From the IMG/VR virus record IMGVR_UViG_3300028042_000002, positions 66,050 through 130,049 of that record: 64,000 bases of DNA; one strand, given 5' to 3'. A program made the translations under genes and the position numbers. The DNA is from a virus (lineage: Duplodnaviria; Heunggongvirae; Uroviricota; Caudoviricetes). A model generated the notes under the pieces. The model did not search any database and had not been told where the DNA came from. It saw only the letters and a program-made list of their open reading frames with translations. Below, piece after piece: positions 44 to 35,273 of the stretch (the first letter of the stretch is position 1; every line of letters begins with the position of its first letter).

Positions 44-817
44 ATGGGTAAGAATTTATTTTTAAATCATAATGAATATACTTTATTTGGTAATCCTCCT
101 TTAGATATTGTTTATAATGATGGTGAAATTATAGGAGATGATGCACCATGGCAACATGAATTTCAATCTAAATCAGGTCAAACCTTCGAATTAGCATTAG
201 AAAGTGAATATTATATTAGATTTTGTAATGGATATTTAAGACCTAGTGGCAATTTAGTACGATTTGAATTTAGCAGTCCAATAATTGAGGATTGCTTCGG
301 ATGGTTCGCTTACAATGGTCAATATTCAGTACTTGATGGATTATCAACTCAAAGTGCATTACAACCTAAAATTAATTATAATGGTCAGAAAGTTAACATA
401 GATTTAACAATTCATCCACAATTATTATTAGATTTAAAATTTTATAATGGTCAAGCTTCATACATTCCCAACCATGAATATAATGTTAATTTATACAGTG
501 GTCAGGAATTAAAAGTTGATTTATATGAAGAACCATTCATAGGATTAAATGGTCAATCAATGGTATTAACAGAGTTGTCAACCGCTACACCTAATGTTAA
601 ATTTACTACTAACTATTTGATATGTTTAGAGAATTTATATTATCCACTAACAGAAGATGGAGATATTGATTATACTTATCAACAGACTGGAATAGCAGTT
701 GAAAATGAAGAATACTATACCAAAATTGATGGAACTTGTACTAATGATTATGTATATAGAACTACATTACATTTATTTGGGTATAGTAATATTATGATGG
801 ATGTTACTTTAGATTAA
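44..817 (+). CDS. hypothetical protein with YNGQ-type repeats; possibly 5'-partial, since the frame is open to the window start; possible fiber or adhesin
   Basis: Long ORF. Repeated 'YNGQ' motifs about every 30-40 aa. No stop in frame upstream to position 2. Confidence 0.45.
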   Translation: MGKNLFLNHNEYTLFGNPPLDIVYNDGEIIGDDAPWQHEFQSKSGQTFELALESEYYIRFCNGYLRPSGNLVRFEFSSPIIEDCFGWFAYNGQYSVLDGLSTQSALQPKINYNGQKVNIDLTIHPQLLLDLKFYNGQASYIPNHEYNVNLYSGQELKVDLYEEPFIGLNGQSMVLTELSTATPNVKFTTNYLICLENLYYPLTEDGDIDYTYQQTGIAVENEEYYTKIDGTCTNDYVYRTTLHLFGYSNIMMDVTLD

Positions 818-1075
818 TTTGTATAATTTTTGAAGTTCTAAATTTAAATCATCTATTTCATTACCAATAGATTTAATATATTTTTCATCATTTTTTGTTA
901 TTTTATATGATAATAATCTATGTTTCAATTTTAATTTATTTTCAATATATGAAATAGATGATTGTGCTTGTGTTGGAGAAATGCAACTAAAACTTCGATT
1001 ACCTGAAAACGGTTTAATATTTCCATTTTCATCAACTTCACATTCAATAATTAATTGTTCTATATTATTTTTCAT
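809..1075 (-). CDS. hypothetical small protein
   Basis: ORF in a co-oriented minus-strand series. Confidence 0.35.
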   Translation of the reverse strand: MKNNIEQLIIECEVDENGNIKPFSGNRSFSCISPTQAQSSISYIENKLKLKHRLLSYKITKNDEKYIKSIGNEIDDLNLELQKLYKLI

Positions 1076-1300
1076 AATTTAACCTCGATTATTATCATAT
1101 TAAATGTTGTATTACGCTAATATACTATGGTTATAAACTGAATTAGATTTTTCATTATCATCAGGTTTATAATAATTCATATTATGAGTAGCAAAGTTTA
1201 GTTTGGTGAGTACTGCAAATTCATATCCAAATTCTTCAATTTCTGAAACGGTTAAAATTTTACCTTCTGGCACACGTTTTTTCAATTTGAACACAATACA

Positions 1301-1513
1301 TTAAGTTTCATCATCTTGCTCAAATTGAATACGATTAACTTTTACGTCAATTTTTAACAATTTAGTAAGGATTTCAGCGGTTGAACTATGACCAATTGCT
1401 GATGTAATATCATTATTTTTGACAAATTGTTGAGCTTGGATTAATGTAATTTGACGATAATCAAATACGCCAAAAGAGGTTAAGATTGAAGTGTTTAATA
1501 ATGCTAATTTCAT
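1301..1513 (-). CDS. hypothetical small protein
   Basis: ORF in the minus-strand early-gene series. Confidence 0.35.
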   Translation of the reverse strand: MKLALLNTSILTSFGVFDYRQITLIQAQQFVKNNDITSAIGHSSTAEILTKLLKIDVKVNRIQFEQDDET

Positions 1514-1524
1514 AATATTTACCT

Positions 1525-1869
1525 TTATTGGTTAGTTTCAGTTACTTCTAAAATTGTTACTTGTTTTGATGATAAAACTACATAATCAGTAAATCCATCA
1601 TAATTTAATATTGCACCATCTGCATTGTTATTAATTAGATTTTCTTTACAATCATATGTATCAATTTGACCATTTGAACCGTCATCATAGTCATTATTAA
1701 TAGTAATTTCACATTTATGACAATATGATAAACCATTAGCACCGATTCCATCTAATAATTCATTATCAGATGGTTCAATATCAGTAAACCATAATCCATC
1801 ACATTTAGAACTATCAAATTTGCTAATTTTACTATCACTATAATGATAAGCTATGTAAGTATCCATCAT
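1525..1869 (-). CDS. hypothetical acidic Cys-containing protein
   Basis: ORF preceded, on the minus strand, by the conserved early promoter, 5' UTR and an AGGAAAT SD. Confidence 0.5.
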   Translation of the reverse strand: MMDTYIAYHYSDSKISKFDSSKCDGLWFTDIEPSDNELLDGIGANGLSYCHKCEITINNDYDDGSNGQIDTYDCKENLINNNADGAILNYDGFTDYVVLSSKQVTILEVTETNQ

Positions 1870-1904
1870 ATTTCCTAATTGGTTAAGTTGCTTCGATGGA
1901 TACT

Positions 1905-1932
1905 ATTATACTGAATTTTTAACTATTGTCAA
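1905..1932 (-). promoter_or_regulatory. sigma70-type early promoter (TTGACA-16-TATAAT)
   Basis: Minus strand reads TTGACAatagttaaaaattcagTATAAT. Duplicated at 2525-2552. Confidence 0.6.
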
Positions 1933-2486
1933 CTATTTATTTCAGATTTATTATATAGTTCATCAACATTTTTATATGTATTCAATATAGTAAAATCTTT
2001 ATCTGTTACATATTTAGTATTATTAAATATATACACTTTAAATGTTATTGTATTTGTATAATTATCAATCAATACATCAACTCCACTATTTAATTTCAAT
2101 ATGCCATATCTATTTACTTTTTTATCATAATATGATAAATTTATATTACCATTTTTAAATATTTTTGAAATGTAACATCTATTATTTTCAATAAATGATG
2201 ATATTAAAGTATTTTCATTTACACGTATTAAATATCCAAAATCTTGCGTATCATTCATAGCCATTGATAAATTATAACTTGTAAAATCATCAATACTTAA
2301 TGTTGACAATTTTACAACTTTAAAAAAAGTTTCATCTTTATTAAAATGATATTCTTGTTTTGCTAAGATTTTATATTTTTTCCATGCTAATTTTAAACTA
2401 GCTTTAAAAAATGTTGATGCTGGATAACCATATTTCACTGATGCTATATTTGATATTTTCCAAGCATCTGTCATAATATTTTTCAT
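1929..2486 (-). CDS. hypothetical protein
   Basis: 185-aa ORF downstream of a duplicated early promoter. Confidence 0.5.
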   Translation of the reverse strand: MKNIMTDAWKISNIASVKYGYPASTFFKASLKLAWKKYKILAKQEYHFNKDETFFKVVKLSTLSIDDFTSYNLSMAMNDTQDFGYLIRVNENTLISSFIENNRCYISKIFKNGNINLSYYDKKVNRYGILKLNSGVDVLIDNYTNTITFKVYIFNNTKYVTDKDFTILNTYKNVDELYNKSEINS

Positions 2487-2524
2487 TATAATATTATCCG
2501 TATTAAGTTAAGTTGATAAATACT

Positions 2525-2552
2525 ATTATAATGAATTTTTAACTATTGTCAA
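2525..2552 (-). promoter_or_regulatory. sigma70-type early promoter (duplicate of 1905-1932)
   Basis: Same roughly 55-bp sequence as at 1893-1945, with TTGACA-16-TATAAT. Confidence 0.6.
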
Positions 2553-2556
2553 CTAT

Positions 2557-4347
2557 TTATTTCAGATTAGGCAATTTCATTACATCTACATCATTTTTAC
2601 CTAATTTAAATGTAGTTGTATTCATCAATAAATCAATTTCATTATCATTAATTTTCATGGACTTATCTTTAAATTGCATATCATTTTTAATGTCATCTCT
2701 ACTTTTTAACCATCCTTTCAATAAACCGTGTTGAACATTTAATAATTTCATAAAATCTTGATTAAATTTAATATGAAAATTGCCATTTTTATAACTTCGC
2801 ACAGCCATGAAAATAAATTGTTCATCATTATCATATTTAGTACAGTAATAATTATGAATAGAGTTGTCATTATATGATAAAGATTTCCATGAAGTAATCA
2901 TATTAAATCCTAAATTTTCGGCAATAATCATAATATCTTTAATGAAATTAGTTGCACGTTCAGGTAAATTAGTATGATTATCACATTCATATTGTGAATA
3001 ATAGCTTGTATAACCAGTCAAAATGATACGATAATCTAATGTAACAGCACCATAACTATCTGCCTTTCTCCACATTGTATTATATTCATCAAAATATTTC
3101 TTATTACTTTTATATGCAGTAGTTGAAGCGTCATTCATCATACATTCAAAAATATTAATTAACTGTTCATCGTAATATTGATTAGCAATTTTTAATATCA
3201 TTCCTGTAATTGCATAACAATTTTCATTATTAAAATCCAGTTGATTATTATTATCCATTGTTGATAAAATCTTACTTAGTGTTACACTTGTTAAATGTTT
3301 GGTAATAGGTGTATAATTCTTAAATAATTCAGTCCAATATTGACGTTTTAATGATGATAATTTCTTCTTTAAAGTATCTGAAATATTGGTTAATTTTACG
3401 TCAAACTCTTTAAGTACATCTTTAGGAATTTGTACTAACTGTTTGTAAACATTAAACAATTTGTCATTATCTCTAGTATATAATTGGACTAAAGCTCCCA
3501 CAATTGATTGACATTTTACAATTTCATTATCTAAACGTTTGGCAAATTCATCCTCACTTGATTTAGTGTTATCAATATCTTCATTATATTGATTAGTGGT
3601 ATCATGAGTAGCCACAAAATTATTAAATAATAAATCAAATGGATTAACTTTAACCGAATTAATTTTAATATCTTTAAAATTTGAGGTGTAATCAACTTTA
3701 ATAATATCAATATTTGCCCGTGCCTTACGTTCACCATCTAAGAAATTATCAGAATGAATTACAGTTACAATTGCTTTACGTGATTTAATAGCTACATTAA
3801 TTTCATGATTATCTTTCCATCTATCTGGTACAATTAAATACATTAATTTACAATTACTTTCATTTAATAATTTAATCATAAATTGTTCATATTCCGAATA
3901 AGGTGGATTACAGAAAACAATTTCCATAGGTTTATCAACTAATGAACATGAATGTAAATCTGCACCAATAAATCTAATATCATTATCAGGGTTAGTAATA
4001 TAATTATCAATTAAAAGTTGTGATTTTTCAATAGCATATAATTCTAAATTGGGGATAATATTATTAATTGTAATATAATCCGCAAGGTGTAATAAAGCGA
4101 CACAATTACCAGCACCAATATCCAAAATTGAATAATATTCACGATCATGGAAATTATTAGATCTATAACTATCTTCAAATTGATTATAATGTTTAGAAAT
4201 ATTATCAGTAATAATATCTAACATATCAGTTGTAGTTGGGTAAAATTCAAAATCTTGGTTAGATTGTTTTAATTGTTTAACAAGTTGAACAGTTGAAGTC
4301 ATAATAATTAAATAATAAATGTGAATTAAGGAGCTGTAATAATACAA
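2557..4347 (-). CDS. SAM-dependent N6-adenine/N4-cytosine (NPPY-class) methyltransferase, large form
   Basis: Motif I 'LDIGAGNCV' and motif IV 'FCNPPY' in the N-terminal half. 596 aa. Confidence 0.6.
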   Translation of the reverse strand: MYYYSSLIHIYYLIIMTSTVQLVKQLKQSNQDFEFYPTTTDMLDIITDNISKHYNQFEDSYRSNNFHDREYYSILDIGAGNCVALLHLADYITINNIIPNLELYAIEKSQLLIDNYITNPDNDIRFIGADLHSCSLVDKPMEIVFCNPPYSEYEQFMIKLLNESNCKLMYLIVPDRWKDNHEINVAIKSRKAIVTVIHSDNFLDGERKARANIDIIKVDYTSNFKDIKINSVKVNPFDLLFNNFVATHDTTNQYNEDIDNTKSSEDEFAKRLDNEIVKCQSIVGALVQLYTRDNDKLFNVYKQLVQIPKDVLKEFDVKLTNISDTLKKKLSSLKRQYWTELFKNYTPITKHLTSVTLSKILSTMDNNNQLDFNNENCYAITGMILKIANQYYDEQLINIFECMMNDASTTAYKSNKKYFDEYNTMWRKADSYGAVTLDYRIILTGYTSYYSQYECDNHTNLPERATNFIKDIMIIAENLGFNMITSWKSLSYNDNSIHNYYCTKYDNDEQFIFMAVRSYKNGNFHIKFNQDFMKLLNVQHGLLKGWLKSRDDIKNDMQFKDKSMKINDNEIDLLMNTTTFKLGKNDVDVMKLPNLK

Positions 4348-7997: not shown

Positions 7998-8273
7998 TTA
8001 TAAAATTTCAATAATATCATCAGCCCATTCATTTAAGGACAAATAAATTTCATTTTTTGGAATATCATTATCTTTAACATATTCCAAAAAATCATCTATT
8101 AAATCAATAAGTTGGCTATGCGAGATTACTTCCATTTTACCATATTCAGTTAATATAATTTCAAGCTCATTAATAAGTTTAATATTTTTATGATTGGATA
8201 TATGGAGAATATTTTTCAGATTATTTAATCTGTTAATTTGGATTTCAATTTTATCGAGTGTTAATGCAGTCAT
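7998..8273 (-). CDS. small acidic early protein (MTALT start)
   Basis: ORF with an N-terminus related to the MTTLTN family. Confidence 0.45.
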   Translation of the reverse strand: MTALTLDKIEIQINRLNNLKNILHISNHKNIKLINELEIILTEYGKMEVISHSQLIDLIDDFLEYVKDNDIPKNEIYLSLNEWADDIIEIL

Positions 8274-8312
8274 AATTTGGCTAGTCCTGTTTAGTATTAG
8301 TTTATTTAATGA

Positions 8313-8504
8313 TTATTTAGTAACAAGCTCAACAAGATTAGTTAAATCTTTATTTGTAATATTATCATTATCAATGTCATTTACTAAATTTTCACATAAT
8401 GATTTAAGTTGTTCAATTTCATCATTAATATTACTAACTTTACGATTTAATTGAATTTTAAGAGTGGTTACTACAATTTTATTACTTTGAGATATTTTAG
8501 TCAT
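8313..8504 (-). CDS. small early protein
   Basis: ORF with the conserved 'cctgttag' SD region upstream. Confidence 0.4.
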   Translation of the reverse strand: MTKISQSNKIVVTTLKIQLNRKVSNINDEIEQLKSLCENLVNDIDNDNITNKDLTNLVELVTK

Positions 8505-8596
8505 AATCTTAATTCCTGTTAGTTGTTTAAGTTGTTTCGATATGAAAGAGTGTACTCTTATAATATCAACAAGTTACCAACTTAGTCATATAATAA

Positions 8597-8604
8597 TATA
8601 AATA
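8597..8604 (+). promoter_or_regulatory. T4-late-type promoter TATAAATA
   Basis: Conserved cassette upstream of 8632. Confidence 0.45.
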
Positions 8605-8631
8605 CTTAATATCACACCGCACTAGCACAAT

Positions 8632-9156
8632 ATGCCATATTTCAGTCAATTTAATAAAATTAATTACACGTTTGACAGTAACCATAAAGCAACCTTAGTT
8701 AATATCACTCAAAATATAATTCTTAAAAATAATCAAATACGTGATACAACTTTATATTTTAATTATAATATTCAAGATGGTGAAAAAGCTGAACATATTT
8801 CTAATAAATTTTATCGTACACCTGAATACCACTACATAATTTTATTATTAAATGACATCATCAACCCATATTTTGACTGGTGTGTAAGCGGACGAGAGTT
8901 AGAAAGTTTTATAAATGATAAATATGGTTCAACCGTAAATGACGTGCATCATTATATAGATTTAGCTGATAATAATAGGCAGATTGATGATTATGATAGT
9001 GTGAAAATTGGAGAAATGGCAACTATACCAGCCAATATATCAATAGTTACAAATAGAGACCATGAAATAGCGTTAAATGAAGGTAGAAGGCTGATAAAAC
9101 TTATCTCAAGTGATTATATTCTTGAGATAGTGGAAGAGTTTGAAGGATTGTTTTAA
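8632..9156 (+). CDS. hypothetical late protein (possibly structural)
   Basis: 174-aa ORF after a late promoter. Confidence 0.5.
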   Translation: MPYFSQFNKINYTFDSNHKATLVNITQNIILKNNQIRDTTLYFNYNIQDGEKAEHISNKFYRTPEYHYIILLLNDIINPYFDWCVSGRELESFINDKYGSTVNDVHHYIDLADNNRQIDDYDSVKIGEMATIPANISIVTNRDHEIALNEGRRLIKLISSDYILEIVEEFEGLF

Positions 9157-9242
9157 CTTTTAGACTATGAAAAGTGACTTTTAGGTTTAAACTGATTAGA
9201 TGAATTACAATTAATTCAACACATTGATTGTCGAGTGATTAT

Positions 9243-9539
9243 TTAAAACGATTTATAACTTTTACATTCAATTACACCATTAATAAAATCTCTATACGTT
9301 TTAATAATATTATTTAATCGAATTTCTTGTACATCAAAATCAATTTCATTTAAATTATATAAAAATCTTTCACAACTTTTATCACCATTTAATAAAATAT
9401 CTATTTCATATGCTACCAAAGTATGATAACCTTTTTCATTTCCCATTGAAATCATCGTGAATATTAACAATTCAAGTTGGTCAATAATTGTATGATTAGA
9501 TGTTTCAACACTTTTAATACATTTTCTTGAGATTTTCAT
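9243..9539 (-). CDS. small early protein
   Basis: ORF with the conserved SD cassette. Confidence 0.45.
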   Translation of the reverse strand: MKISRKCIKSVETSNHTIIDQLELLIFTMISMGNEKGYHTLVAYEIDILLNGDKSCERFLYNLNEIDFDVQEIRLNNIIKTYRDFINGVIECKSYKSF

Positions 9540-9624
9540 AATATTTATTCCTGTTGGTTAATTCAAGTACCTTATTATAATGATTTTTAAGGTAATGTCC
9601 AGATTTATTTAATTATTTTTGAAA

Positions 9625-9918
9625 TTAGATTAAATCTTCGGCAATACTTTCAGCACTATTGTAAACAATTTCATCATCTTCATTGTAATAATAAAAACTA
9701 TCACAACATTGTTCAGTATCATCAATCCAAATTTCATCATCTAAAATATCATCTTTTGGGTCATCAGTTGGACAATATGTATTAGTGCATAAAAATTCAT
9801 ATGTTACTTCACCGTAACCATTAACACCAATTCTTGCTGATGTTGAATTGTTATCCATTAAATCTAAATAAATTTGAGCAACTTGTAATGCAATTTCAGA
9901 GTTTGTTAATGTAGTCAT
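9625..9918 (-). CDS. small acidic Cys-containing early protein, MTTLTN family
   Basis: N-terminus is MTTLTN. Conserved promoter cassette. Confidence 0.5.
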   Translation of the reverse strand: MTTLTNSEIALQVAQIYLDLMDNNSTSARIGVNGYGEVTYEFLCTNTYCPTDDPKDDILDDEIWIDDTEQCCDSFYYYNEDDEIVYNSAESIAEDLI

Positions 9919-9968
9919 AATATTTAATCCTGTTAGTTAGTTAGGCTTTATTGCTTAACTTGGATACT

Positions 9969-9996
9969 ATTATACTCATTTTTTAATACATGTCAA
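9969..9996 (-). promoter_or_regulatory. early sigma70 consensus promoter (TTGACA-16-TATAAT)
   Basis: Minus strand reads TTGACAtgtattaaaaaatgagTATAAT. Identical to the one at 13316-13343. Confidence 0.6.
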
Positions 9997-10070
9997 CTAA
10001 ATTATGAAATTAATTAAAGTTATTTTAATTATCTAATAATATCAACAACTTACAAACAGTCATATAATAA

Positions 10071-10078
10071 TATAAATA
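10071..10078 (+). promoter_or_regulatory. T4-late-type promoter TATAAATA
   Basis: Conserved cassette upstream of 10119. Confidence 0.45.
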
Positions 10079-10118
10079 TTAACAACCATCTCCACACCGT
10101 ATAATAATATAATCAAAT

Positions 10119-10769
10119 ATGGCTACTAATTTTTATTTAAATCATTATGAAAGCAAACCTGAACAAAATTTAATAGAAAGTTTAACTATTGAAGCTATCA
10201 AATATTGGGGAATGGATGTATTTTACCTACCTCGCACCAGTTTAGAACGTGATAATATTTTGGGTGAAGACATTAAAACAGTATTTAAAAATTCTCATAT
10301 GATTGAAGTATATTTTGAAAATGTTGATGGTTTCGAGGGTCAAGGCAACTTTTTATCAACTTTTGGAATGCAAATTAAAGATAATGCAACATTAATTATA
10401 AGTAAATCAAGATTTCAACAAGTTGTATATGGTAAAGTAAGACCAATGGAAGGGGATTTAATTTATTTACCATTATCCAATTCAATATTTGAAATTAATT
10501 TTGTCGAGCATGAGAACCCATTTTATCAAGTTGGTAAATTATTCACATATAAATTAACGTGTGAATTATATACACATAGTCATGAAGATTTTGAAACTGG
10601 TAATGTTAATATAGATGGGATAATGGCGGACTTTGATGATGTTAAAATGGTGAATAGTGCAGATAATATTGATATTCAGAATGAAAGTGATGTAATAGTT
10701 AAGGATATTGAAAATCCTAAAGATGAATTTGAGAATATTGCGGATAATGACCCATTTAATGGATTTTAG
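10119..10769 (+). CDS. hypothetical late protein (possibly virion-associated)
   Basis: 216-aa ORF after a late promoter. Confidence 0.5.
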   Translation: MATNFYLNHYESKPEQNLIESLTIEAIKYWGMDVFYLPRTSLERDNILGEDIKTVFKNSHMIEVYFENVDGFEGQGNFLSTFGMQIKDNATLIISKSRFQQVVYGKVRPMEGDLIYLPLSNSIFEINFVEHENPFYQVGKLFTYKLTCELYTHSHEDFETGNVNIDGIMADFDDVKMVNSADNIDIQNESDVIVKDIENPKDEFENIADNDPFNGF

Positions 10770-10774
10770 GCAAA

Positions 10775-10800
10775 ATAAAACCACCTGTTAAAGTGGTTTC
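10775..10800. terminator. bidirectional hairpin terminator (AAACCAC-loop-GTGGTTT)
   Basis: Stem aaaccac/gtggttt with a T-run on the minus strand. Member of a recurring hairpin family. Confidence 0.5.
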
Positions 10801-10828
10801 ATGATGTTTCACTTGGAATAATTAATAA

Positions 10829-11419
10829 TTATAAATTCATTAAACTTTTTAAATCATCATTTGCAACGGCTAATTTCATTGCTTCAAGTTTATCATTTTG
10901 TAATTTTACAATTTCTTCTTGTTGATTAATGATTTTATTTACAAGTTGTTGTTCCATATCAGATAATTCAACTTTAGTTGTTACTTCTTCGTCATTATTA
11001 AACATTTTATCAAATTCAATCATGAATTCATTAATAATTGAATATAGTGCATCATCCAAAGTATTCCATTTTTCTTCACAATCCATTGTTGGTTTCTGAT
11101 AATTATCATTAGTAATTTCTTCATTATCATTTTCCCAATCTTCAAAAAATTGTTTATTATCTAATTCAATATTAAACCTTTTCATAATTTTTAACAAGTT
11201 AATGCCACTTTCACTATTTGATAATTCACTCATTTCAAAAAGATTAATCATTTCATTATGTAAAGTTAATTCTTCAACATTAGCACCAAAACACCCATTT
11301 CCATTGGTATCACAACCATTTGAGTAATATTGATAATGTCCACCCTTATTTACTTGATTTACATAATTTGATAATAAAGTTTCTAAACGAGTTGTTTCAG
11401 TTGTAGTTAATGTAGTCAT
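10829..11419 (-). CDS. acidic early protein, MTTLTT family
   Basis: N-terminus is MTTLTTTE. Conserved cassette upstream. Confidence 0.5.
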   Translation of the reverse strand: MTTLTTTETTRLETLLSNYVNQVNKGGHYQYYSNGCDTNGNGCFGANVEELTLHNEMINLFEMSELSNSESGINLLKIMKRFNIELDNKQFFEDWENDNEEITNDNYQKPTMDCEEKWNTLDDALYSIINEFMIEFDKMFNNDEEVTTKVELSDMEQQLVNKIINQQEEIVKLQNDKLEAMKLAVANDDLKSLMNL

Positions 11420-11471
11420 AATATTTATTCCTGTTAGTTAATTAGTTGTTTAAGTTGCTTCGATATAAAAG

Positions 11472-11499
11472 AGTATACTCCCATTTTCACTATTGTCTA
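11472..11499 (-). promoter_or_regulatory. early promoter (TAGACA-16-TATACT)
   Basis: Conserved cassette. Confidence 0.5.
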
Positions 11500-11621
11500 G
11501 TTATTTATTCAATTATTTTAAAATAAATTAATTATCTAATAATATCAACAAGTTACCAACTTAGTCATATAATAATATAAATATTAATAACCATCAAATC
11601 ACTTTATAATAATATAAAACT

Positions 11622-11909
11622 ATGTCAAAACCTGCTCATCGCACCACCGATTTATGCACTGGTCATTCATGTTACCCGCCACGCCGAAGTAAAACAGGTT
11701 CACCAGATGTCATAATAAATGATAAATTGGCTCATAGATTAGGTGATAGTTGGAATACTCATTCATGTGGGAGGTATGGTCATAAAGGTGAAACTGTAAC
11801 CGCATCTATGTATGTTATTATAAATGATAAAGGGTGCGCACGAATTGGGGATGATGTGAGTTGTGGTAGTGTGATAATGACAGGTTCAAATGATGTTATA
11901 GTTGATTAA
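11622..11909 (+). CDS. gp5.4: PAAR-repeat tail-spike tip protein (T4 gp5.4-like)
   Basis: 95 aa. PAAR-like motifs: 'AHRLGDSW', 'ARIGDDVSCGSVIMTGSNDVIV'. Cys/His-rich. Late promoter upstream. Confidence 0.7.
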   Translation: MSKPAHRTTDLCTGHSCYPPRRSKTGSPDVIINDKLAHRLGDSWNTHSCGRYGHKGETVTASMYVIINDKGCARIGDDVSCGSVIMTGSNDVIVD

Positions 11910-11911
11910 TA

Positions 11912-11940
11912 AAAACCATCATAAAAGGTGGTTTTTTTAT
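11912..11940 (+). terminator. rho-independent terminator
   Basis: aaaacca-N10-tggtttt followed by a T-run. Confidence 0.55.
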
Positions 11941-11957
11941 TGAAAAATAATTATTAA

Positions 11958-12650
11958 TTATCTAGCTAACATTACATATCTAGCATAATCATAACCTTGT
12001 GTATCAATATAAATAGTTTCTCTGTCTGTTGATACTAATGCAAATCCTGTCCAATAATCAATATTATCAGTTTCTTCATTATAACCATCATCAATATATG
12101 AAACATTAAACTTTTTACGACTTTTAAGTAAATTATTTACAATTTTATCATATTTTTTAGTTTTAACATTGATAATTTTAATCACTTTAAATTTAGTTTC
12201 AATGAATTTCTGCTCACATTCAAACCGAACCTCACCAATTGTACAATTTTTATTTAACCATGGATTTTTAACATTAACAATTTGATTAAGTTGTGGTAAA
12301 TATGATACACATTCACAATTTTGTAATGCTTCTGTACGGTTAATTCTATATAAATCTTTAGCTTTTTGTTCATCATCTTCCCGCTTCCAAATTTTAAATA
12401 AAAATTCATATTCAGTATCTAAAATATTTTGAAGATTAACTTTAACATCAGCTAAAGTTTTAAATGTCTCTAAATATCCCATACCATTCATTAAATATTC
12501 TTTAGTATCAGGTTTTAAATTAAAAAATATACACCAACCTCCAAATTGTTTTTGGATATAAACATCGGCGAAATATTTTGTGTCTTGAGTTTCATATTTA
12601 CAACTGCTTTCATCATATTTAGCTTTAATTCTAGTATAAGTACGTTTCAT
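11958..12650 (-). CDS. hypothetical protein
   Basis: 230-aa ORF with an early promoter cassette upstream. Confidence 0.5.
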   Translation of the reverse strand: MKRTYTRIKAKYDESSCKYETQDTKYFADVYIQKQFGGWCIFFNLKPDTKEYLMNGMGYLETFKTLADVKVNLQNILDTEYEFLFKIWKREDDEQKAKDLYRINRTEALQNCECVSYLPQLNQIVNVKNPWLNKNCTIGEVRFECEQKFIETKFKVIKIINVKTKKYDKIVNNLLKSRKKFNVSYIDDGYNEETDNIDYWTGFALVSTDRETIYIDTQGYDYARYVMLAR

Positions 12651-28321: not shown

Positions 28322-28531
28322 ATGAATAATCACAATCAACAATTTAAATATGATGGTACTATGACTAAAGATAAAATTATTCATCATATTATTAAAGATT
28401 TAAACGGTGCTAAATATATTTATGAAAATTCAATTATTGGATTATTTGAATATTATAATGTAAGTGGATTATTTTATGAAAAGGTTAAACCTGATTTATA
28501 TAAAATGATTAAACAAGTTTATAATTATTAA
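28322..28531 (+). CDS. hypothetical small protein
   Basis: ORF. Confidence 0.35.
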   Translation: MNNHNQQFKYDGTMTKDKIIHHIIKDLNGAKYIYENSIIGLFEYYNVSGLFYEKVKPDLYKMIKQVYNY

Positions 28532-30096
28532 TTATATCCAACAGTAGGGTCATTATAAAATCCTACTGGTGGTAAATCATCTTCAATATTATTACTTTTA
28601 ATCAACTCAGCCCGTGTATTATTATTATACATATCTTTAAAGTATTCCTCATTAGTCAACCATCCAAAACTTACCAACGTCATTACAATATCATCATTTT
28701 TACCTTTTTCGGCACTATAGCTATCTTTATTATTAATTGAAAATGTTTGCAGCTCTGAAATTGTATTTTCATCTTTAATAATAAGTATTTCATTTTCTAT
28801 TAATATTTTAAGATTTGCACACCCAACCTTTTTACTACTTTTAGTCATTTTTAATCCATATTGAATATTTGAACAAAAACCACTACTAATTTTAACTTTA
28901 CCGCCTTTGGAAACAGTAATAATCATGTTTTCATATTCATAATCATAGTATAAACTTCGTGCAACTTCTGCACCAATTGTATTAGTTTCAATAATGGTTA
29001 ATGCCTCGTTATATTCTAATGCAAAATTATTAACAACTTGAGATAATAAAATAGGGGAGATTAGATTATTTCGATATAATGCAACTTGAGTATAAGGTGA
29101 TGATGTAATATCCATAATATTAATAACACTATAATCTAATCCTACACCTTCTGATACGTCAACACATGCTACATAATTATGACCAGCAATAGGTTTTTCA
29201 TATATAGTATAATTATCATTTAATAATAACGGTTGAATATGAGTTAAGTTTTCAATTTTTGAACCTTCTATTAATGTGTTACTACTGCCGAAAAATTCAT
29301 TACCATATTCACGTCTAAATTTAAGTAATCCAATATTTTTAATGGTTTCAGCTTTCCAATCATCATCATAACCTTCATTCTCCCAATAATCGACACGAAT
29401 AGGATTAAATGTGTTATTACCTTGAGTTGCCTCTGTCCACAATTTATAAAATAATTCCATACCATTTGGAGTAGATGAAATTATAAGCTTGGATGTTTTA
29501 CCACTTGAAATCACTGGATATGTAGATGAGTAAAATTCACTAGCATTATCAACCTTAGAAAATTCATCTAAATATAATAAATTATATGCATTACCAACTG
29601 CACTATCAGATGATGTTGCAGATGATAATATTCTTGAACCATTGCCAAATTCTACATCAGTTTTATTCCATATTTCAACCCCACATTGTAAAAAATGAGG
29701 TAAACTTTCATACATTAACTTGATGCCACGTAAGATTTTTTTAGAAACATCTCCTTTATTAGCTAATATTCCTATATATTTATCACTATTAAATATAGCA
29801 TAATGTAAAATATAGGTCATTGTTGTGGTAGTTTTACCCGTTTGCCGAGATGCTAATAATATATTAAATCTATTAGCATTATATTTATTAATAATACGTT
29901 CTTGATATTTCCTCATTACAAACTTTTGAACGCCTTGGTCTAAAGTATGAATTTTGCAATAAGTTTTAGCAAAGTATATAATATCATTAGAGCATTTAAT
30001 ATACTCTGAAATTTGTTTTTTGGTAAGTTTAACCGTTACCCCAGCTTTTTTGAGGTGTGGATTACCATTATAAAATGTATTATTTTTTATAGCCAT
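28528..30096 (-). CDS. gp17: terminase large subunit (T4 gp17-like)
   Basis: Walker A 'SRQTGKTT'. Conserved 'GILANKGD', 'LPHFLQ', 'ISSTPNG' and a C-terminal nuclease region, aligned to T4 gp17. Confidence 0.9.
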   Translation of the reverse strand: MAIKNNTFYNGNPHLKKAGVTVKLTKKQISEYIKCSNDIIYFAKTYCKIHTLDQGVQKFVMRKYQERIINKYNANRFNILLASRQTGKTTTTMTYILHYAIFNSDKYIGILANKGDVSKKILRGIKLMYESLPHFLQCGVEIWNKTDVEFGNGSRILSSATSSDSAVGNAYNLLYLDEFSKVDNASEFYSSTYPVISSGKTSKLIISSTPNGMELFYKLWTEATQGNNTFNPIRVDYWENEGYDDDWKAETIKNIGLLKFRREYGNEFFGSSNTLIEGSKIENLTHIQPLLLNDNYTIYEKPIAGHNYVACVDVSEGVGLDYSVINIMDITSSPYTQVALYRNNLISPILLSQVVNNFALEYNEALTIIETNTIGAEVARSLYYDYEYENMIITVSKGGKVKISSGFCSNIQYGLKMTKSSKKVGCANLKILIENEILIIKDENTISELQTFSINNKDSYSAEKGKNDDIVMTLVSFGWLTNEEYFKDMYNNNTRAELIKSNNIEDDLPPVGFYNDPTVGYN

Positions 30097-30101
30097 AATT
30101 A

Positions 30102-30563
30102 TTAATCTTTTAATCTTTCATAATATTCATGACAATTTAATATGAATGGTTTTAATATTGGTAAATTGTTAATATCACCTTTAAACTCTGTTGATAATGT
30201 AATATGAGGATTATAAGCTGGGTATGGATGAGTAAAATTATACTTAGTTTTCAAGTAGTTATGACGTTTTTGTAATGTAACACTTTCAAAACTAATAACA
30301 AGAGTATTCTCACCAAATATCTCATAATTAGGGTTATTAATTTTAATACCTTTATTATAGTAATCTAATTCTATAACATGATTTATATGATGGTTTACAT
30401 TGAAAAAGGTTGAACTTTCATCATAAATAATTGTAGTGTGGATATCATTAATATTTGATAAATTTTCTATATTTTTATAAGGTGATAAGTCAAAATTAGT
30501 ATATTTAACGGCACAGTAAAATCCTAAAGGTGTATAATTCATGGCTCTCGTGTTGAATAACAT
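30102..30563 (-). CDS. 2H phosphoesterase (two HxT motifs); Acb1-like anti-CBASS cyclic-nucleotide phosphodiesterase candidate
   Basis: 'IHTTIIY' (H42) and 'PHITLST' (H120). 153 aa, close to the T4 Acb1 size. Sits where gp16 would be expected. Confidence 0.55.
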   Translation of the reverse strand: MLFNTRAMNYTPLGFYCAVKYTNFDLSPYKNIENLSNINDIHTTIIYDESSTFFNVNHHINHVIELDYYNKGIKINNPNYEIFGENTLVISFESVTLQKRHNYLKTKYNFTHPYPAYNPHITLSTEFKGDINNLPILKPFILNCHEYYERLKD

Positions 30564-30605
30564 TTAAAAAGTAGTATTAATATTTATAATAAGAGGCTTA
30601 AGATA

Positions 30606-33600
30606 TTGAAACAGTACTTAAATATAACCCAAATTAAGAATAAAATTTATCATAAATATATTGATGAAAATGCTCAAAGGCAGGTAGAATTTACAGATAT
30701 TAAACCTGAATTATTCGTTAAAACCAATAGTGATTATGAAACAGATTATAAAAGTTTTAATGGTGGATATCTTGATAAAGTTGATTTTAATTCTATTAAA
30801 CATGCTCAATCATTTGTATATGAATATAAAGACCATATAGGATTTGATATTTACGGCAATCGTAACTACTGGGCGCAATTTATACATGAATACTACCCTG
30901 ATATTATTAATTATAATAAATCATTATTAAATGTAGTTTCATTAGATATTGAAAATTTGATAGGAGATGGTCGAACGTCACCAACAGAAAGTGCAATGTT
31001 AGCTAAAAATGAAATCACAGTAATTACACTTGGATATAATGGTAAATATTTCACTTTTACAACTAAACCATTTGAAAACAATGATAAAAATGTAATCCAT
31101 ACTCAAGCAAAATCGGAACAAGAATTATTATATAACTTTTTAATGAAATGGCGTGAAATTGACCCCGATATTATTACAGGGTGGTTTATAGACCAATATG
31201 ATATACCATATATTGTAAATAGAATTAGAAACTTGTTAGGTGATAAATATGTTAAATGGTTAAGTCCAAGCGGTAAACAATTTGTGGGGGATGATAGTGT
31301 AAAATACAATGATTATATTCATGATAATAAACATTATGATATATTAGGTATTACAACTTTAGACTACCTTGCAATGTACAAGAAATTTACATTCACTAAA
31401 CGTGAAAAATATTCATTAGATTTTATATCTCATATTGAATTGGGTAAAAATAAGCTAGATTATTCGGAGTATAGTAATTTAGATGATATGTATAATAATA
31501 ATCCACAAAAATACTTTGATTATAATATTATAGATGTAAAATTAATTGATGAGCTTGATGAAAAGTTAAACCTTATCGAATTATGCTTAAACCTTAGCTA
31601 TAAAAGTAAGATTAACTTTGATAAAGTATTTTCACAGGTTCAAATGTGGGATAGTTATATTTATCATGAATTAATGAAAGATAATATTATTATACCACCA
31701 AAGCAAGACCATAATAAATCAGAAAAATATGAAGGTGCGGCAGTAATTGAACCTAAAATTGGTTTGCATAATTGGGTAGTATCATACGACCTTGATGGAC
31801 TTTATCCACATTTAATGATGCAATATAATATTTCACCTGAAACAATCAGAAAAATATTGGATGGTGTAACAGTTGATAAATTGTTAAATAAATCTATAAA
31901 TGTTAATGAATTATTAGAAGGTGATGACGATTTAACATTATGTGCCAATGGTGTGACATTTAGTAAAACTGGTGGAATTATTCCTAAATTAATGAGGGAT
32001 ATTTATAAAGAACGGAAAGAAGTTAAGCAACAAATGTTGAAATATGAACAAATGTTAACAAATGATAAGAATAACAAAGAGTTACAGAATTTATATAGTA
32101 AATGTAAGGTTACTCAAATGGGATTAAAAGTATTTTTAAATTCATGTTATGGGATGCTAGGTAATCAATATTCAAGGTATTATAATATTAATATTGCCGA
32201 AGCTATCACTTTAAGTGGACAATTATCATTAATGTGGATTAAAAATGATATGAATACACAATTAAATAAAGAATTTAAAAATGTTGATGCTGATTATATT
32301 ATTGCGGGTGATAGTGTAGGTTATGAAAGTGAAGTTCATATTAGAAAACTTTTAAATAATGGTAATTATGATTATAAATCTATTAAAATTAATGAATTAT
32401 TTAATATGGTTGATATTGATAATAAATATTTAAATGATGATAAAGGTAAGCAAAGAATATTCAATATGCAAGGTTGGGAGACTTTAACTTACGATGAAAC
32501 AATTCATGAAAATTGCTATAAACCTATTAAATATATTTATCGTCATAAAGTAGATAAGCCAATTTGGAAAGTAAATATTAATAATTGCGAACATATTATT
32601 GTTACGGATGACCATAGTTTAATGGGATATGTCAATACTAAAAATAGATTAAATCATAAGTCTTCAATATTTAAGCGTGTTAAAGTTAAAGAATTAAACA
32701 AGACATCCTTAATTCAAAATAAACATTTGAAAATTCCATTATTAGAGTATGATAATATTGATAGTGATGAAGTGTTGAAATATCAATTCTTAGGTTACAT
32801 GTTGGCTGATGGTAATTATAATCATAAAATGTGTGAATTGAGTGTTGGAATTCAAGATGTTAATGAAATTGAAATTAAATTATTTAAACCATTATTAAAA
32901 GCTAACTTAATTACACGATATACAATCAGAGAAAATCGCCACGATGTTAGGATATATGGTGTAAATATGTTTAATTTTTGTGGTGATATTTGCAATAGAA
33001 CTGGAAAGTTAGAAACTTTGACAAATATTGAAAATTTAGAAGAATATAAAATTAAAGCTTTTTTAAGCGGGTATTTCACTGGAGATGGTCATGCTGGAGT
33101 AACTAACATAAAAGTTTCATCTATACATAAAAATATAATATTAAAAATTAAACGATTATTATTATTAATTAATATTTCTAGCACAATCTTTAAAGATAAC
33201 ACTGAAAATTCTTATAATGGCGTATTTAGTGGAACATTTAATTATGTATTAGTAATAAAAAGTGATTTTAATGAGGTTGCATTTATCTTAAACCGTAAAA
33301 ATGATTATAAAGATTATAATGATACCCCACGTAGAAGATATTTTAAAAAAAATGGATATAATTTTACTCTATCAACAATTAAAAATATAACACCTGTTAA
33401 TAATTACAATGAATTTGTTTATGATATTGAAGTTGAAGACACCCATACATTTTATGCTAATGATTTATTAGTTCATAATACCGACAGTATTTACACTACA
33501 TTTAACCCAATAGTTAAAAACTATGATGATAATTTATCTAACCATGAAATCACTATTAAATTAGATAAATTTTCAAAGTCTAAAATTCAACCAATGATTA

Positions 33601-34295
33601 ACCAATCTTACATAAATTTAGCAGAATATATGCACGCTAAAGAACAAAAAATGAATATGAGTAGAGAAGTTATTGCTAGTCGTGGAATTTGGAGAAAGAA
33701 GAAAAATTATGCTTTAGATGTTTATAATAGTGAAGGTGTAATTTATAATCCACCAAAATTAAAAATCATGGGGTTGGAAAGTGTAAAATCATCAACTCCT
33801 CAATTATGCAGAATTGCTATTACTAAAATTATTGAAATCATGTTACGTGAAGATGAACTAACTTTACAAGAATTTGTATCAAAATTTAAAATAGAATTTA
33901 ATAATGCTCCACTTGAAGATATTGCCAAACCAACAGGGGTTAATGATATCGTAAAATGGGATTATGATGATAAATTTAATAAATGGGGATTTACAACTAG
34001 AACACCTGCTCACGTTAAAGCTAGTATTACATACAATAGATTAATTGATGAATTAGATTTATACACTAAATATAAAACTATTAATAATGGTGATAAGATA
34101 AAATATTTATATTTATTAAAAAGTAATCCACTTTTCACAAATACAATAGGGTTTCCTGATGTTCTACCATCTGAATTTAAACTTAATGAATATATTGACT
34201 ATAATAATCAATTTTATGTTACATTTAAAAAGCCATTGGATAGTTTATGCAATATAATAAATTGGAAATCTGAAAAACTTAAAACATTTTTTTAA
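30606..34295 (+). CDS. gp43: family B DNA polymerase (T4 gp43-like) containing an intein
   Basis: Exo motifs ('LDIENL'), 'GWFIDQYDIPYIVNR', 'SLYPHLMMQYNISPETI'. Motif C is split: ..IIAGD|intein|TDSIYT. Confidence 0.9.
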   Translation: MKQYLNITQIKNKIYHKYIDENAQRQVEFTDIKPELFVKTNSDYETDYKSFNGGYLDKVDFNSIKHAQSFVYEYKDHIGFDIYGNRNYWAQFIHEYYPDIINYNKSLLNVVSLDIENLIGDGRTSPTESAMLAKNEITVITLGYNGKYFTFTTKPFENNDKNVIHTQAKSEQELLYNFLMKWREIDPDIITGWFIDQYDIPYIVNRIRNLLGDKYVKWLSPSGKQFVGDDSVKYNDYIHDNKHYDILGITTLDYLAMYKKFTFTKREKYSLDFISHIELGKNKLDYSEYSNLDDMYNNNPQKYFDYNIIDVKLIDELDEKLNLIELCLNLSYKSKINFDKVFSQVQMWDSYIYHELMKDNIIIPPKQDHNKSEKYEGAAVIEPKIGLHNWVVSYDLDGLYPHLMMQYNISPETIRKILDGVTVDKLLNKSINVNELLEGDDDLTLCANGVTFSKTGGIIPKLMRDIYKERKEVKQQMLKYEQMLTNDKNNKELQNLYSKCKVTQMGLKVFLNSCYGMLGNQYSRYYNINIAEAITLSGQLSLMWIKNDMNTQLNKEFKNVDADYIIAGDSVGYESEVHIRKLLNNGNYDYKSIKINELFNMVDIDNKYLNDDKGKQRIFNMQGWETLTYDETIHENCYKPIKYIYRHKVDKPIWKVNINNCEHIIVTDDHSLMGYVNTKNRLNHKSSIFKRVKVKELNKTSLIQNKHLKIPLLEYDNIDSDEVLKYQFLGYMLADGNYNHKMCELSVGIQDVNEIEIKLFKPLLKANLITRYTIRENRHDVRIYGVNMFNFCGDICNRTGKLETLTNIENLEEYKIKAFLSGYFTGDGHAGVTNIKVSSIHKNIILKIKRLLLLINISSTIFKDNTENSYNGVFSGTFNYVLVIKSDFNEVAFILNRKNDYKDYNDTPRRRYFKKNGYNFTLSTIKNITPVNNYNEFVYDIEVEDTHTFYANDLLVHNTDSIYTTFNPIVKNYDDNLSNHEITIKLDKFSKSKIQPMINQSYINLAEYMHAKEQKMNMSREVIASRGIWRKKKNYALDVYNSEGVIYNPPKLKIMGLESVKSSTPQLCRIAITKIIEIMLREDELTLQEFVSKFKIEFNNAPLEDIAKPTGVNDIVKWDYDDKFNKWGFTTRTPAHVKASITYNRLIDELDLYTKYKTINNGDKIKYLYLLKSNPLFTNTIGFPDVLPSEFKLNEYIDYNNQFYVTFKKPLDSLCNIINWKSEKLKTFF
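32313..33479 (+). mobile_element. intein (389 aa) with LAGLIDADG homing endonuclease, inserted in DNA polymerase motif C (DTDS)
   Basis: Starts with Ser after AGD. Block B 'IIVTDDHSLMGY'. LAGLIDADG motifs 'FLGYMLADGNY' and 'FLSGYFTGDGH'. Blocks F/G 'VYDIEVEDTHTFYANDLLVHN', followed by +1 Thr. Confidence 0.85.
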
Positions 34296-34802: not shown

Positions 34803-35273
34803 TTACTTTAAATCATAATATTTACCATAATTATCAACCCTACTTTCATTTAGTTTTGGATTATGGTAATAAACTCTACAAATATTTTCATTATAATAAA
34901 CACGTTCCCCATTTGTATCAACCTTCTCCAAAACTTCTAATAATATTTGTAACCGCACTTCATTATAATTTAAATCTCCCCTATCTGAATGTAAGCTAAT
35001 TATTTCACGTTTAAAATTACCTTTACCAAATTTGGTAATATCATCATTTAAATATTTACAACTTCCATAATATTTTTCCCAGTTTGATTGCTTTACAACT
35101 CTTCTTTTACGTTTATATCCTTTCAATGGTGGTAATAGTTTTTGACTATGGAATAACTTTTTGCCAATATATTTCATACCATTAACTTTATTAGTGATAA
35201 TATATATAAATCCTTTATAATTATTAATGTCATCTATAGTGAAATCTTGATTATTATATTGCCACGCTTTCAT
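34803..35273 (-). CDS. GIY-YIG homing endonuclease (Seg-like)
   Basis: 'GFIYIITNKVNGMKYIGKK' GIY-YIG motif. Lone minus-strand gene between plus-strand genes. Confidence 0.55.
   Translation of the reverse strand: MKAWQYNNQDFTIDDINNYKGFIYIITNKVNGMKYIGKKLFHSQKLLPPLKGYKRKRRVVKQSNWEKYYGSCKYLNDDITKFGKGNFKREIISLHSDRGDLNYNEVRLQILLEVLEKVDTNGERVYYNENICRVYYHNPKLNESRVDNYGKYYDLK

Follow-up and report, generated by a model that had tools for sequence, protein, structure and literature searches.

How can a DNA polymerase gene serve a phage when 389 codons stand between the two aspartates of its catalytic motif C? The question is raised by a family B polymerase gene of the gp43 type in a stretch of 64,000 nucleotides (nt; positions 66,050 to 130,049 of IMG/VR record IMGVR_UViG_3300028042_000002, hereafter the window) whose host is an uncultured T4-like phage with a guanine-plus-cytosine (GC) content of 25%. 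An earlier note made from the letters of the window had proposed that the polymerase is split by a LAGLIDADG intein. We are highly confident that the insert is a splicing-competent class-1 intein of the pol-c allele with an embedded LAGLIDADG homing endonuclease. The in-frame insertion, the catalytic residues, the fold, the allele membership, the empty sites in relatives and the spread over very different polymerases were all computed here, and the coordinates of the features are collected in Table 1.

The insert consists of 1167 nt (389 codons), in frame and without stops, placed between the GD and the TDS of motif C. The codon GAT for D569 ends at 32312, AGT for Ser1 occupies 32313-32315, and the 3' end reads CAT AAT (His-Asn, with Asn389 at 33477-33479), followed by ACC GAC AGT (Thr-Asp-Ser), in which Thr+1 begins at 33480. 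Codon reading showed the boundaries proposed in the earlier note, 32313 and 33479, to be exact to the base. The extein that it had read, ..IIAGD/TDSIYT (the slash marks the insertion point here and below), was also borne out: the full context is ..DYIIAGD/SVGYESEV..DLLVHN/TDSIYT, and the insert-free product of 840 amino acids (aa; ~98.8 kDa, computed) matches RB69 gp43 (1clq) with an E value of 1e-116 and passes through the junction without a gap (..dadyiiagdtdsiyttfnpiv.. against ..geafvlYGDTDSIYVSadkii..). The note had placed the insertion at the catalytic Asp pair. Motif C is indeed the site, but the insertion falls within the pair, with the first Asp on its N-terminal side and the second, as part of T-D-S, on its C-terminal side. 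The metal-binding role of the motif C aspartates is known from D621 and D623 of RB69 gp43. Because the intein separates these two residues, the precursor would be unable to polymerise and splicing would be obligatory.

Apart from the insert, the gene has the features of a functional polymerase. The open reading frame (ORF) is uninterrupted over 30606-34295 and was called identically in a public assembly. Translation begins at a TTG codon (30606-30608), a start that is supported by the N-terminus of the protein (MKQYLNITQIKNKIYHKYIDEN), since its alignment with RB69 gp43 begins at residue 3. The regions flanking the insert match the Pfam families DNA_pol_B_exo1 and DNA_pol_B, and the residues of Exo I-III and of motifs A, B and C are all intact, including DIE (114), YDIPY (198), YNIIDV (306), DLDGLYP (395) and KVFLNSCYG (508) in the N-extein.

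The residues expected of a class-1 intein are present throughout the insert: Ser1, a TxxH block B, D371 and H378 in block F, the H388-N389 pair, and Thr+1 in the C-extein. When 80 full-length allelic inteins were compared, S1, D371 and N389 were found in 100%, H388 in 76 and H378 in 69, and the serine start and His-Asn end before Thr described earlier are thus near-invariant in the family. Inteins that begin with serine also bear a signature NX motif, a conserved His after Arg or Lys that lies about 20 residues upstream of block B and is needed for splicing (PMC10189870); in the window intein this motif is R77-H78. Five internal cysteines are present, so the intein is not strictly cysteine-less.

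Profile and structural comparisons agree with this assignment. The insert matches Pfam Intein_splicing (PF14890) with 52.3 bits (E 7e-14, cut-off 35.8) and LAGLIDADG_3 (PF14528) with 45.2 bits (E 1e-11, cut-off 22.5), scores that put the assignment as an intein, as judged from sequence, far beyond chance. Blocks B and F/G and the two LAGLIDADG motifs listed in the earlier note were all recovered in the sequence. An AlphaFold2 model built with 44 homologues has a mean predicted local distance difference test (pLDDT) of 90.8 and a predicted template modelling score (pTM) of 0.90, with a beta-rich HINT domain (aa ~1-136 and ~336-389) around a domain of helices and beta-sheet (aa ~150-335). The best sequence matches in the PDB are the Aes123 PolB1 intein (9HTH, E 1.9e-5) and PI-PkoII (2CW7, E 2.6e-4), both in the N-terminal lobe of HINT. 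In Foldseek searches of the PDB, only nuclease-bearing inteins appeared at the top (TliVMA at 9e-17, PI-PfuI, PhoVMA, PI-PkoII and PI-SceI). The HINT half alone matched mini-inteins including Aes123 PolB1, with Mvu TFIIB also matching, and the nuclease half matched I-DmoI (E ~2e-7, target TM-score 0.6-0.69). PI-SceI, PI-PfuI and the Tli and Pho VMA inteins share the two-domain plan of HINT plus LAGLIDADG nuclease and match best in structure (E 1e-10 to 9e-17, TM-score 0.55-0.66), but they interrupt other host proteins at other sites and are only 10-16% identical to the window intein. PI-SceI and PI-PfuI also have extra DNA-recognition or stirrup domains, which are not apparent in the 389 aa of the window intein. 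PHROGs contains no family for the intein.

The embedded nuclease domain has the form of a pseudo-dimer, with an alpha-beta-beta-alpha-beta-beta-alpha fold over aa 151-315 in the secondary structure of the model. It is of the double-LAGLIDADG type, and both motifs keep the acidic residue (D166 and D258). Identity between the window intein and its closest relative P0001 is 53% in the nuclease domain and 38% in the splicing domain, and in comparisons with P0001, P0004 and P0005 the nuclease domain is conserved at least as well as HINT. Synonymous sites are saturated between the window and L001, the contig of P0001, which share about 50% amino-acid identity.

The insertion D/TDS in motif C (IIAGD/TDS) is, by its sequence, the classical pol-c allele. 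This allele was defined from Mimivirus as YGD/TDS with Ser1, Asn and Thr+1 (PMC549080), and the equivalence to pol-c drawn in the earlier note is upheld by the matching sites of Mimivirus and of Thermococcus sp. AM4 PolB. A HMMER search of 1.84 billion representative proteins with the intein gave 364 matches, 106 of them at E<1e-10 and 30 at E<1e-30, the best at 1e-92. Boundaries of the form xD/S[VIC]...HN/TD[SGA], which correspond to the pol-c site, were found in 109 of the 151 matches listed; pol-c-site inteins therefore occur in at least 109 metagenomic protein clusters, several of them on T4-like contigs. Among the matches listed, inteins at other sites sit lower (P0087 and below, E >= 5e-14), and the window intein is closer in sequence to inteins at the pol-c site than to those elsewhere. 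At 340-425 aa, about 80 of the pol-c-site relatives are full-length; another 30 or so are mini-inteins without a nuclease, which indicates that nuclease loss is common in the family. Some matches carry tandem inteins in motif C (P0003, P0085, P0091, P0119 and P0122, with P0023 and P0127 truncated), a mini-intein at GD/TD and a second intein at DTD/S; since only Thr-Asp separates the two (..VHN/TD/SV...VHN/S..), both must splice to rebuild GDTDS.

Relatives with the site and architecture of the window intein were found in uncultured phages, namely P0001 (contig L001), P0004 (L007), P0032 (L008) and P0005 (L009). Their T4-like contigs carry gp32, RNase H, UvsX, a gp41-like helicase, the clamp loader and gp25, and the inteins are 52%, 46%, 37.5% and 45% identical to that of the window, respectively. 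These are metagenomic predictions, none of which exceeds 52% (intein) or 57% (extein) identity to the window. On L001, gp43 is itself split by an ATGA stop/start overlap into a 606-aa 43A (8181-10001) and a 677-aa 43B (10001-12034). The break precedes the motif C Asp by about 27 codons, with a short unique tail on each side, and the pol-c intein begins at residue 28 of 43B; the arrangement resembles the 43A/43B genes of Aeromonas phages 44RR and 25. On L007, the P0004 intein, second-closest to that of the window, lies in a stand-alone 43B-like ORF (793-3012) with 43A not immediately upstream. A 618-aa ThyX ORF on this contig (6336-8192) gave Intein_splicing and HNH matches, so this phage group appears to be intein-rich.

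Intein-less relatives bear out the position of the junction. The earlier note had advised a check for intein-less alleles, and nine relatives proved to be uninterrupted, aligning gap-free over the junction and reading IIAGD/TDS or IASD/TDS. The closest intein-less polymerases are P0153 (51% identity), P0154 (48%) and P0155-P0157 (44-45%), in which ..IIAGD/TDS.. is unbroken. At the DNA level, the joined-extein junction of the window gene is GTTGATGCTGATTATATTATTGCGGGTGAT/ACCGACAGTATTTACACTACATTTAACCCA, and the P0153 and L001-type site is GCTGGTGAT/ACGGATTCT. The closest deposited phage polymerases are T4-like cyanophage gp43s at ~40% identity, and they always align to the window protein as two pieces and therefore lack the insert. 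Of the 120 gp43 clusters nearest in sequence, the one with the window protein has an intein and the 119 others have none. A scan of IMG/VR with the N-extein gave 80 T4-like loci at 35-46% identity, none with a related intein, and a scan of IMG/VR with the intein gave no relatives. No near-identical DNA was found in 50,697 phage records. When the window intein and the more consensus-like P0032 intein were compared with the phage records by tblastn, no full-length pol-c intein was found in any deposited phage polymerase, and only weak matches were returned, to inteins of terminase and ribonucleotide reductase (RNR) genes and to Lak and Salicola jumbo phages.

The archaeal pol-c inteins share both the site and the chemistry of the window intein. 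In Thermococcus sp. AM4 PolB the context is LYAD/SVTGE..VHN/TDGFF and the intein has nearly the same length (~389-390 aa). This intein, PI-PkoII (Tko Pol-2, 2cw7) and the Psp-GBD Pol intein all lie at D/TD(S/G) and have Ser1, His-Asn, Thr+1, the NX His and an embedded double-LAGLIDADG nuclease. P0039 and P0024 are ~32-34% identical to the window intein. The archaeal hosts are hyperthermophiles, whereas the window derives from a mesophilic, AT-rich T4-like phage, and identity is only ~30%; PI-PkoII is also larger, at 537 aa with extra domains. The Mimivirus PolB intein, likened here by its published description, is a viral pol-c allele with YGD/TDS, Ser1, Asn, Thr+1 and a LAGLIDADG nuclease (Ogata et al. 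2005, PMC549080), but it resides in the delta-like PolB of a giant virus that infects eukaryotes, not in a tailed-phage gp43-type PolB.

Annotated gp43 inteins are also known from Aeromonas phages Aes123, Aes508 and AS-gz and from Campylobacter phage CP21, and the Aes123 PolB1 intein has a crystal structure (9HTH). These share with the window intein the location in motif C of a T4-type gp43, the Ser1 chemistry, an NX motif of the form MKH/RHK and the ..ILVHN end. They lie two residues downstream, however, at DTD/S with Ser+1, and they are naturally split, the N- and C-halves being separated by a free-standing ORF in place of an internal LAGLIDADG domain; this ORF has a Vsr-like endonuclease domain in Aes508 and is unannotated in CP21. 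Their host gene is also broken into 43A and 43B and contains a group I intron. The window intein, a single contiguous ORF with an internal nuclease at D/TDS, was rejected as a member of this split-intein family because both site and architecture differ. The Aes508 polymerase gene (L004, JN377894 16296-24484) has five interruptions, comprising the 43A/43B split, a Seg-like GIY-YIG gene, a group I intron, the split intein at DTD/S and the Vsr-like ORF, and it shows motif C and its vicinity to be heavily targeted. The earlier note had called inteins uncommon in T4-type gp43. This is accurate for deposited genomes and for the nearest relatives of the window, but there are precedents in Aes123, Aes508, AS-gz and CP21, and metagenomes contain more than 100 pol-c-site clusters, several on T4-like contigs.

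These data suggest a course of events in which the gene would be translated to a 144-kDa precursor with its two motif C aspartates 390 residues apart. Splicing would begin with an N-O acyl shift at D569-Ser1, aided by T98 and H101 of block B and by His78 of the NX motif, followed by trans-esterification as Thr+1 attacks. Asn389 would then cyclise to a succinimide with the aid of H388 and of D371 and H378 in block F, and an O-N shift would yield ..IIAGD-TDSIY.., releasing an active 99-kDa polymerase and a free 46-kDa intein. In mixed infections, the free intein or the precursor may cut the motif C DNA of intein-less gp43 alleles, and T4-type recombinational repair would copy the intein into the cut gene from the intein-bearing genome. 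The intein's own gene would be immune to cutting because its target is interrupted.

The distribution of the family bears on this scheme. Related inteins have hosts as different as close marine T4-like gp43s, distant gp43-like enzymes and archaeal PolB, and identity to the window is often higher for the intein than for the host polymerase (P0005, 45% versus 27-29%; P0020, 43% versus 24-29%; P0018, 44% versus 26-35%), which points to horizontal spread. These patterns would fit repeated homing into the invariant motif C DNA but are no proof that the window copy is still mobile.

Several observations weigh against an intein that is intact and mobile in every respect. We infer both splicing and DNA cleavage by the window intein. 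At 10 positions it departs from the >=85% consensus of its family. One of these is the block-D K-x-I-P (aa 232-236, 33006-33020), which is kept in ~90% of allelic inteins and reads K-L-E-T-L in the window, where K232 is kept and I-P is lost; the window nuclease could be weakened by this change. The composition of the intein (GC 23.6%; GC at third codon positions, GC3, 13.9%) is indistinguishable from that of the flanking polymerase (26.2% and 25.2%) and of the whole window (25.3%), and a match of GC and GC3 to the host gene fits long residence and not recent invasion. A degenerate pattern for YIIAGDTDSIYT found no intein-less allele of the window lineage in metagenome and viral contigs, and no close one was present in the searched collections (nearest polymerase 51%), so the window copy is at most putatively mobile at present.

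The same observations are the substance of the alternative that survives best, a domesticated or "stuck" intein that still splices, as phage replication requires, but whose endonuclease is inactive or decaying and which is inherited only vertically. Full amelioration to the host gene, the missing close empty site and the ~30 allelic mini-inteins already without a nuclease are what such an element would predict, as is the degenerate block D that the window shares with P0001, where K-I-S-H-T-L replaces the consensus and the second LAGLIDADG motif has GDR instead of GDG. The changes in these two inteins may reflect either divergence or weakening of the nuclease within their subclade. Against decay stand the retained D166, D258 and block-D Lys, a nuclease domain at least as conserved as HINT in comparisons with P0001, P0004 and P0005, and an AlphaFold2 model that is confident across the whole nuclease domain. 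We consider a stuck intein a tenable but less probable explanation and lean towards a window nuclease that remains active.

A regulatory intein, in which conditional splicing responsive to temperature, redox state or nucleotide or DNA binding times the activation of the replicase during infection, would draw on the location of the insert, as a polymerase interrupted within its catalytic motif can act only once it has been spliced. For other inteins of the replisome, conditional splicing has been put forward. We regard this explanation as improbable for the window: no sensor is indicated by the sequence, the Ser and Thr junction nucleophiles leave no redox-sensitive junction Cys, and the same allele is found in very different hosts, as a selfish element would be. 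If the polymerase gene were a pseudogene or an inactive paralogue, the insert might be a HINT or BIL-like domain or a dead intein that does not splice. In favour of such an insertion, the window covers 64 kb and the genome measures 130 kb or more, so that a second polymerase could lie elsewhere. A non-splicing insertion is very unlikely given the intact 1229-codon ORF with a good ribosome-binding site, the complete exonuclease and polymerase motifs, the full set of splicing nucleophiles and helper residues, and a site in the most constrained hexapeptide of PolB, which tolerates only an element that excises precisely. To our knowledge, BIL domains have neither an embedded LAGLIDADG domain nor a +1 nucleophile context. 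An assembly chimera, conceivable in that the sequence comes from a metagenome assembly, can practically be dismissed, since contigs of 58.6 kb (ENA) and 130 kb (JGI) both encode the identical 1229-aa protein, the junctions keep the reading frame and fall precisely on the canonical pol-c site, the insert equals its flanks in GC and GC3, and the same arrangement recurs on related phage contigs.

For the spliced, nuclease-bearing intein that we favour, the new part is the host: deposited phage genomes include no T4-type phage with a pol-c intein that is contiguous and bears a nuclease. The extent of the pol-c-site family in metagenomes is also new, while the pol-c LAGLIDADG type itself has long been known. 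Current understanding is not overturned by this intein; it adds a phage member to a family whose described members come mostly from archaea and giant viruses. In combination with the more than 100 metagenomic clusters, it suggests that phages carry much of the diversity of the pol-c allele, which bears on how inteins cross between distant hosts. We tentatively raise the possibility that T4-like and related tailed phages form a large and essentially undescribed pol-c reservoir, or shuttle, linking hyperthermophilic archaea and giant viruses, with the window phage as an active node whose functional nuclease homes through T4-type recombination-dependent repair. Such a reservoir may be the "cascade of transfers mediated by DNA viruses" postulated in 2005. 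A more speculative addition would be that the phage times the activation of its replicase by splicing within the catalytic motif. In practical terms, the locus should be annotated as a single gp43 precursor that yields an 840-aa polymerase and a 389-aa intein, not as a 1229-aa "giant" polymerase or as two genes. Mesophilic inteins with Ser1 and Thr+1 junction nucleophiles are sought as ligation tools for oxidising conditions (PMC10189870, PMC11923092). The pol-c-site family offers many candidates, natural mini-inteins included; the window intein would need its five internal Cys removed.

Table 1. Positions in the window of the gp43 precursor gene, the parts of its intein and the adjacent genes.
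Feature	Position	Strand	Details	Evidence
gp43-type family B DNA polymerase precursor gene	30606..34295	+	1229 aa, ~144.5 kDa	ORF list, Pfam
Shine-Dalgarno AAGAGG	30591..30596	+	9 nt 5' of the gp43 TTG start	Direct reading
N-extein	30606..32312	+	569 aa; exonuclease domain, motifs A and B, first motif C Asp (D569)
Predicted intein, pol-c allele	32313..33479	+	Ser1...His-Asn; 389 aa, ~45.8 kDa, pI 8.6
HINT N-terminal lobe	32313..32720	+	aa 1-136, all beta-strand, with Ser1	AlphaFold2 secondary structure
NX motif R77-H78	32541..32546	+	Signature histidine of Ser1 (oxyester) inteins	H78 in 79/80 full-length allelic inteins
Block B T98-D-D-H101 (TxxH)	32604..32615	+		T in 78/80, H in 80/80 allelic inteins
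LAGLIDADG homing-endonuclease domain	32760..33317	+	aa ~150-335, two halves	Pfam, AlphaFold2, Foldseek (I-DmoI, PI-PfuI, PI-SceI, TliVMA)
LAGLIDADG motif 1 LGYMLADGN	32790..32816	+	aa 160-168, catalytic D166	D in 57/80, N in 18/80 allelic inteins
LAGLIDADG motif 2 LSGYFTGDGH	33063..33092	+	aa 251-260, catalytic D258	D in 74/80 allelic inteins
Blocks F and G, VYDIEVEDTHTFYANDLLVHN	33417..33479	+	aa 369-389; D371, H378, H388, N389
C-extein	33480..34295	+	271 aa and stop; Thr+1 nucleophile, D-S of motif C, then thumb domain
Large terminase gene	28528..30096	-
Acb1-like gene	30102..30563	-	2H phosphoesterase, anti-CBASS family
SegE-type homing endonuclease gene	34803..35273	-	Free-standing, GIY-YIG

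No further inteins were found in the window, where a profile of the allele family matched only the gp43 ORF (E 1e-97), and no tRNAs were found in it. An antisense ORF of 75 aa (32852-33079) was dismissed, as it lies wholly inside the conserved coding frame of the intein. The genes near gp43 are T4-like and include gp19 (tail tube), gp2, Rnl1, the large terminase, RNR subunits, dCMP deaminase and the SegE-type endonuclease. Directly upstream of gp43 lie the Acb1-like and large terminase genes, both divergent from it, in an order unlike that of T4. The SegE-type gene, which runs in the opposite direction and lies about 500 bp downstream, represents a second, independent mobile element beside the polymerase.

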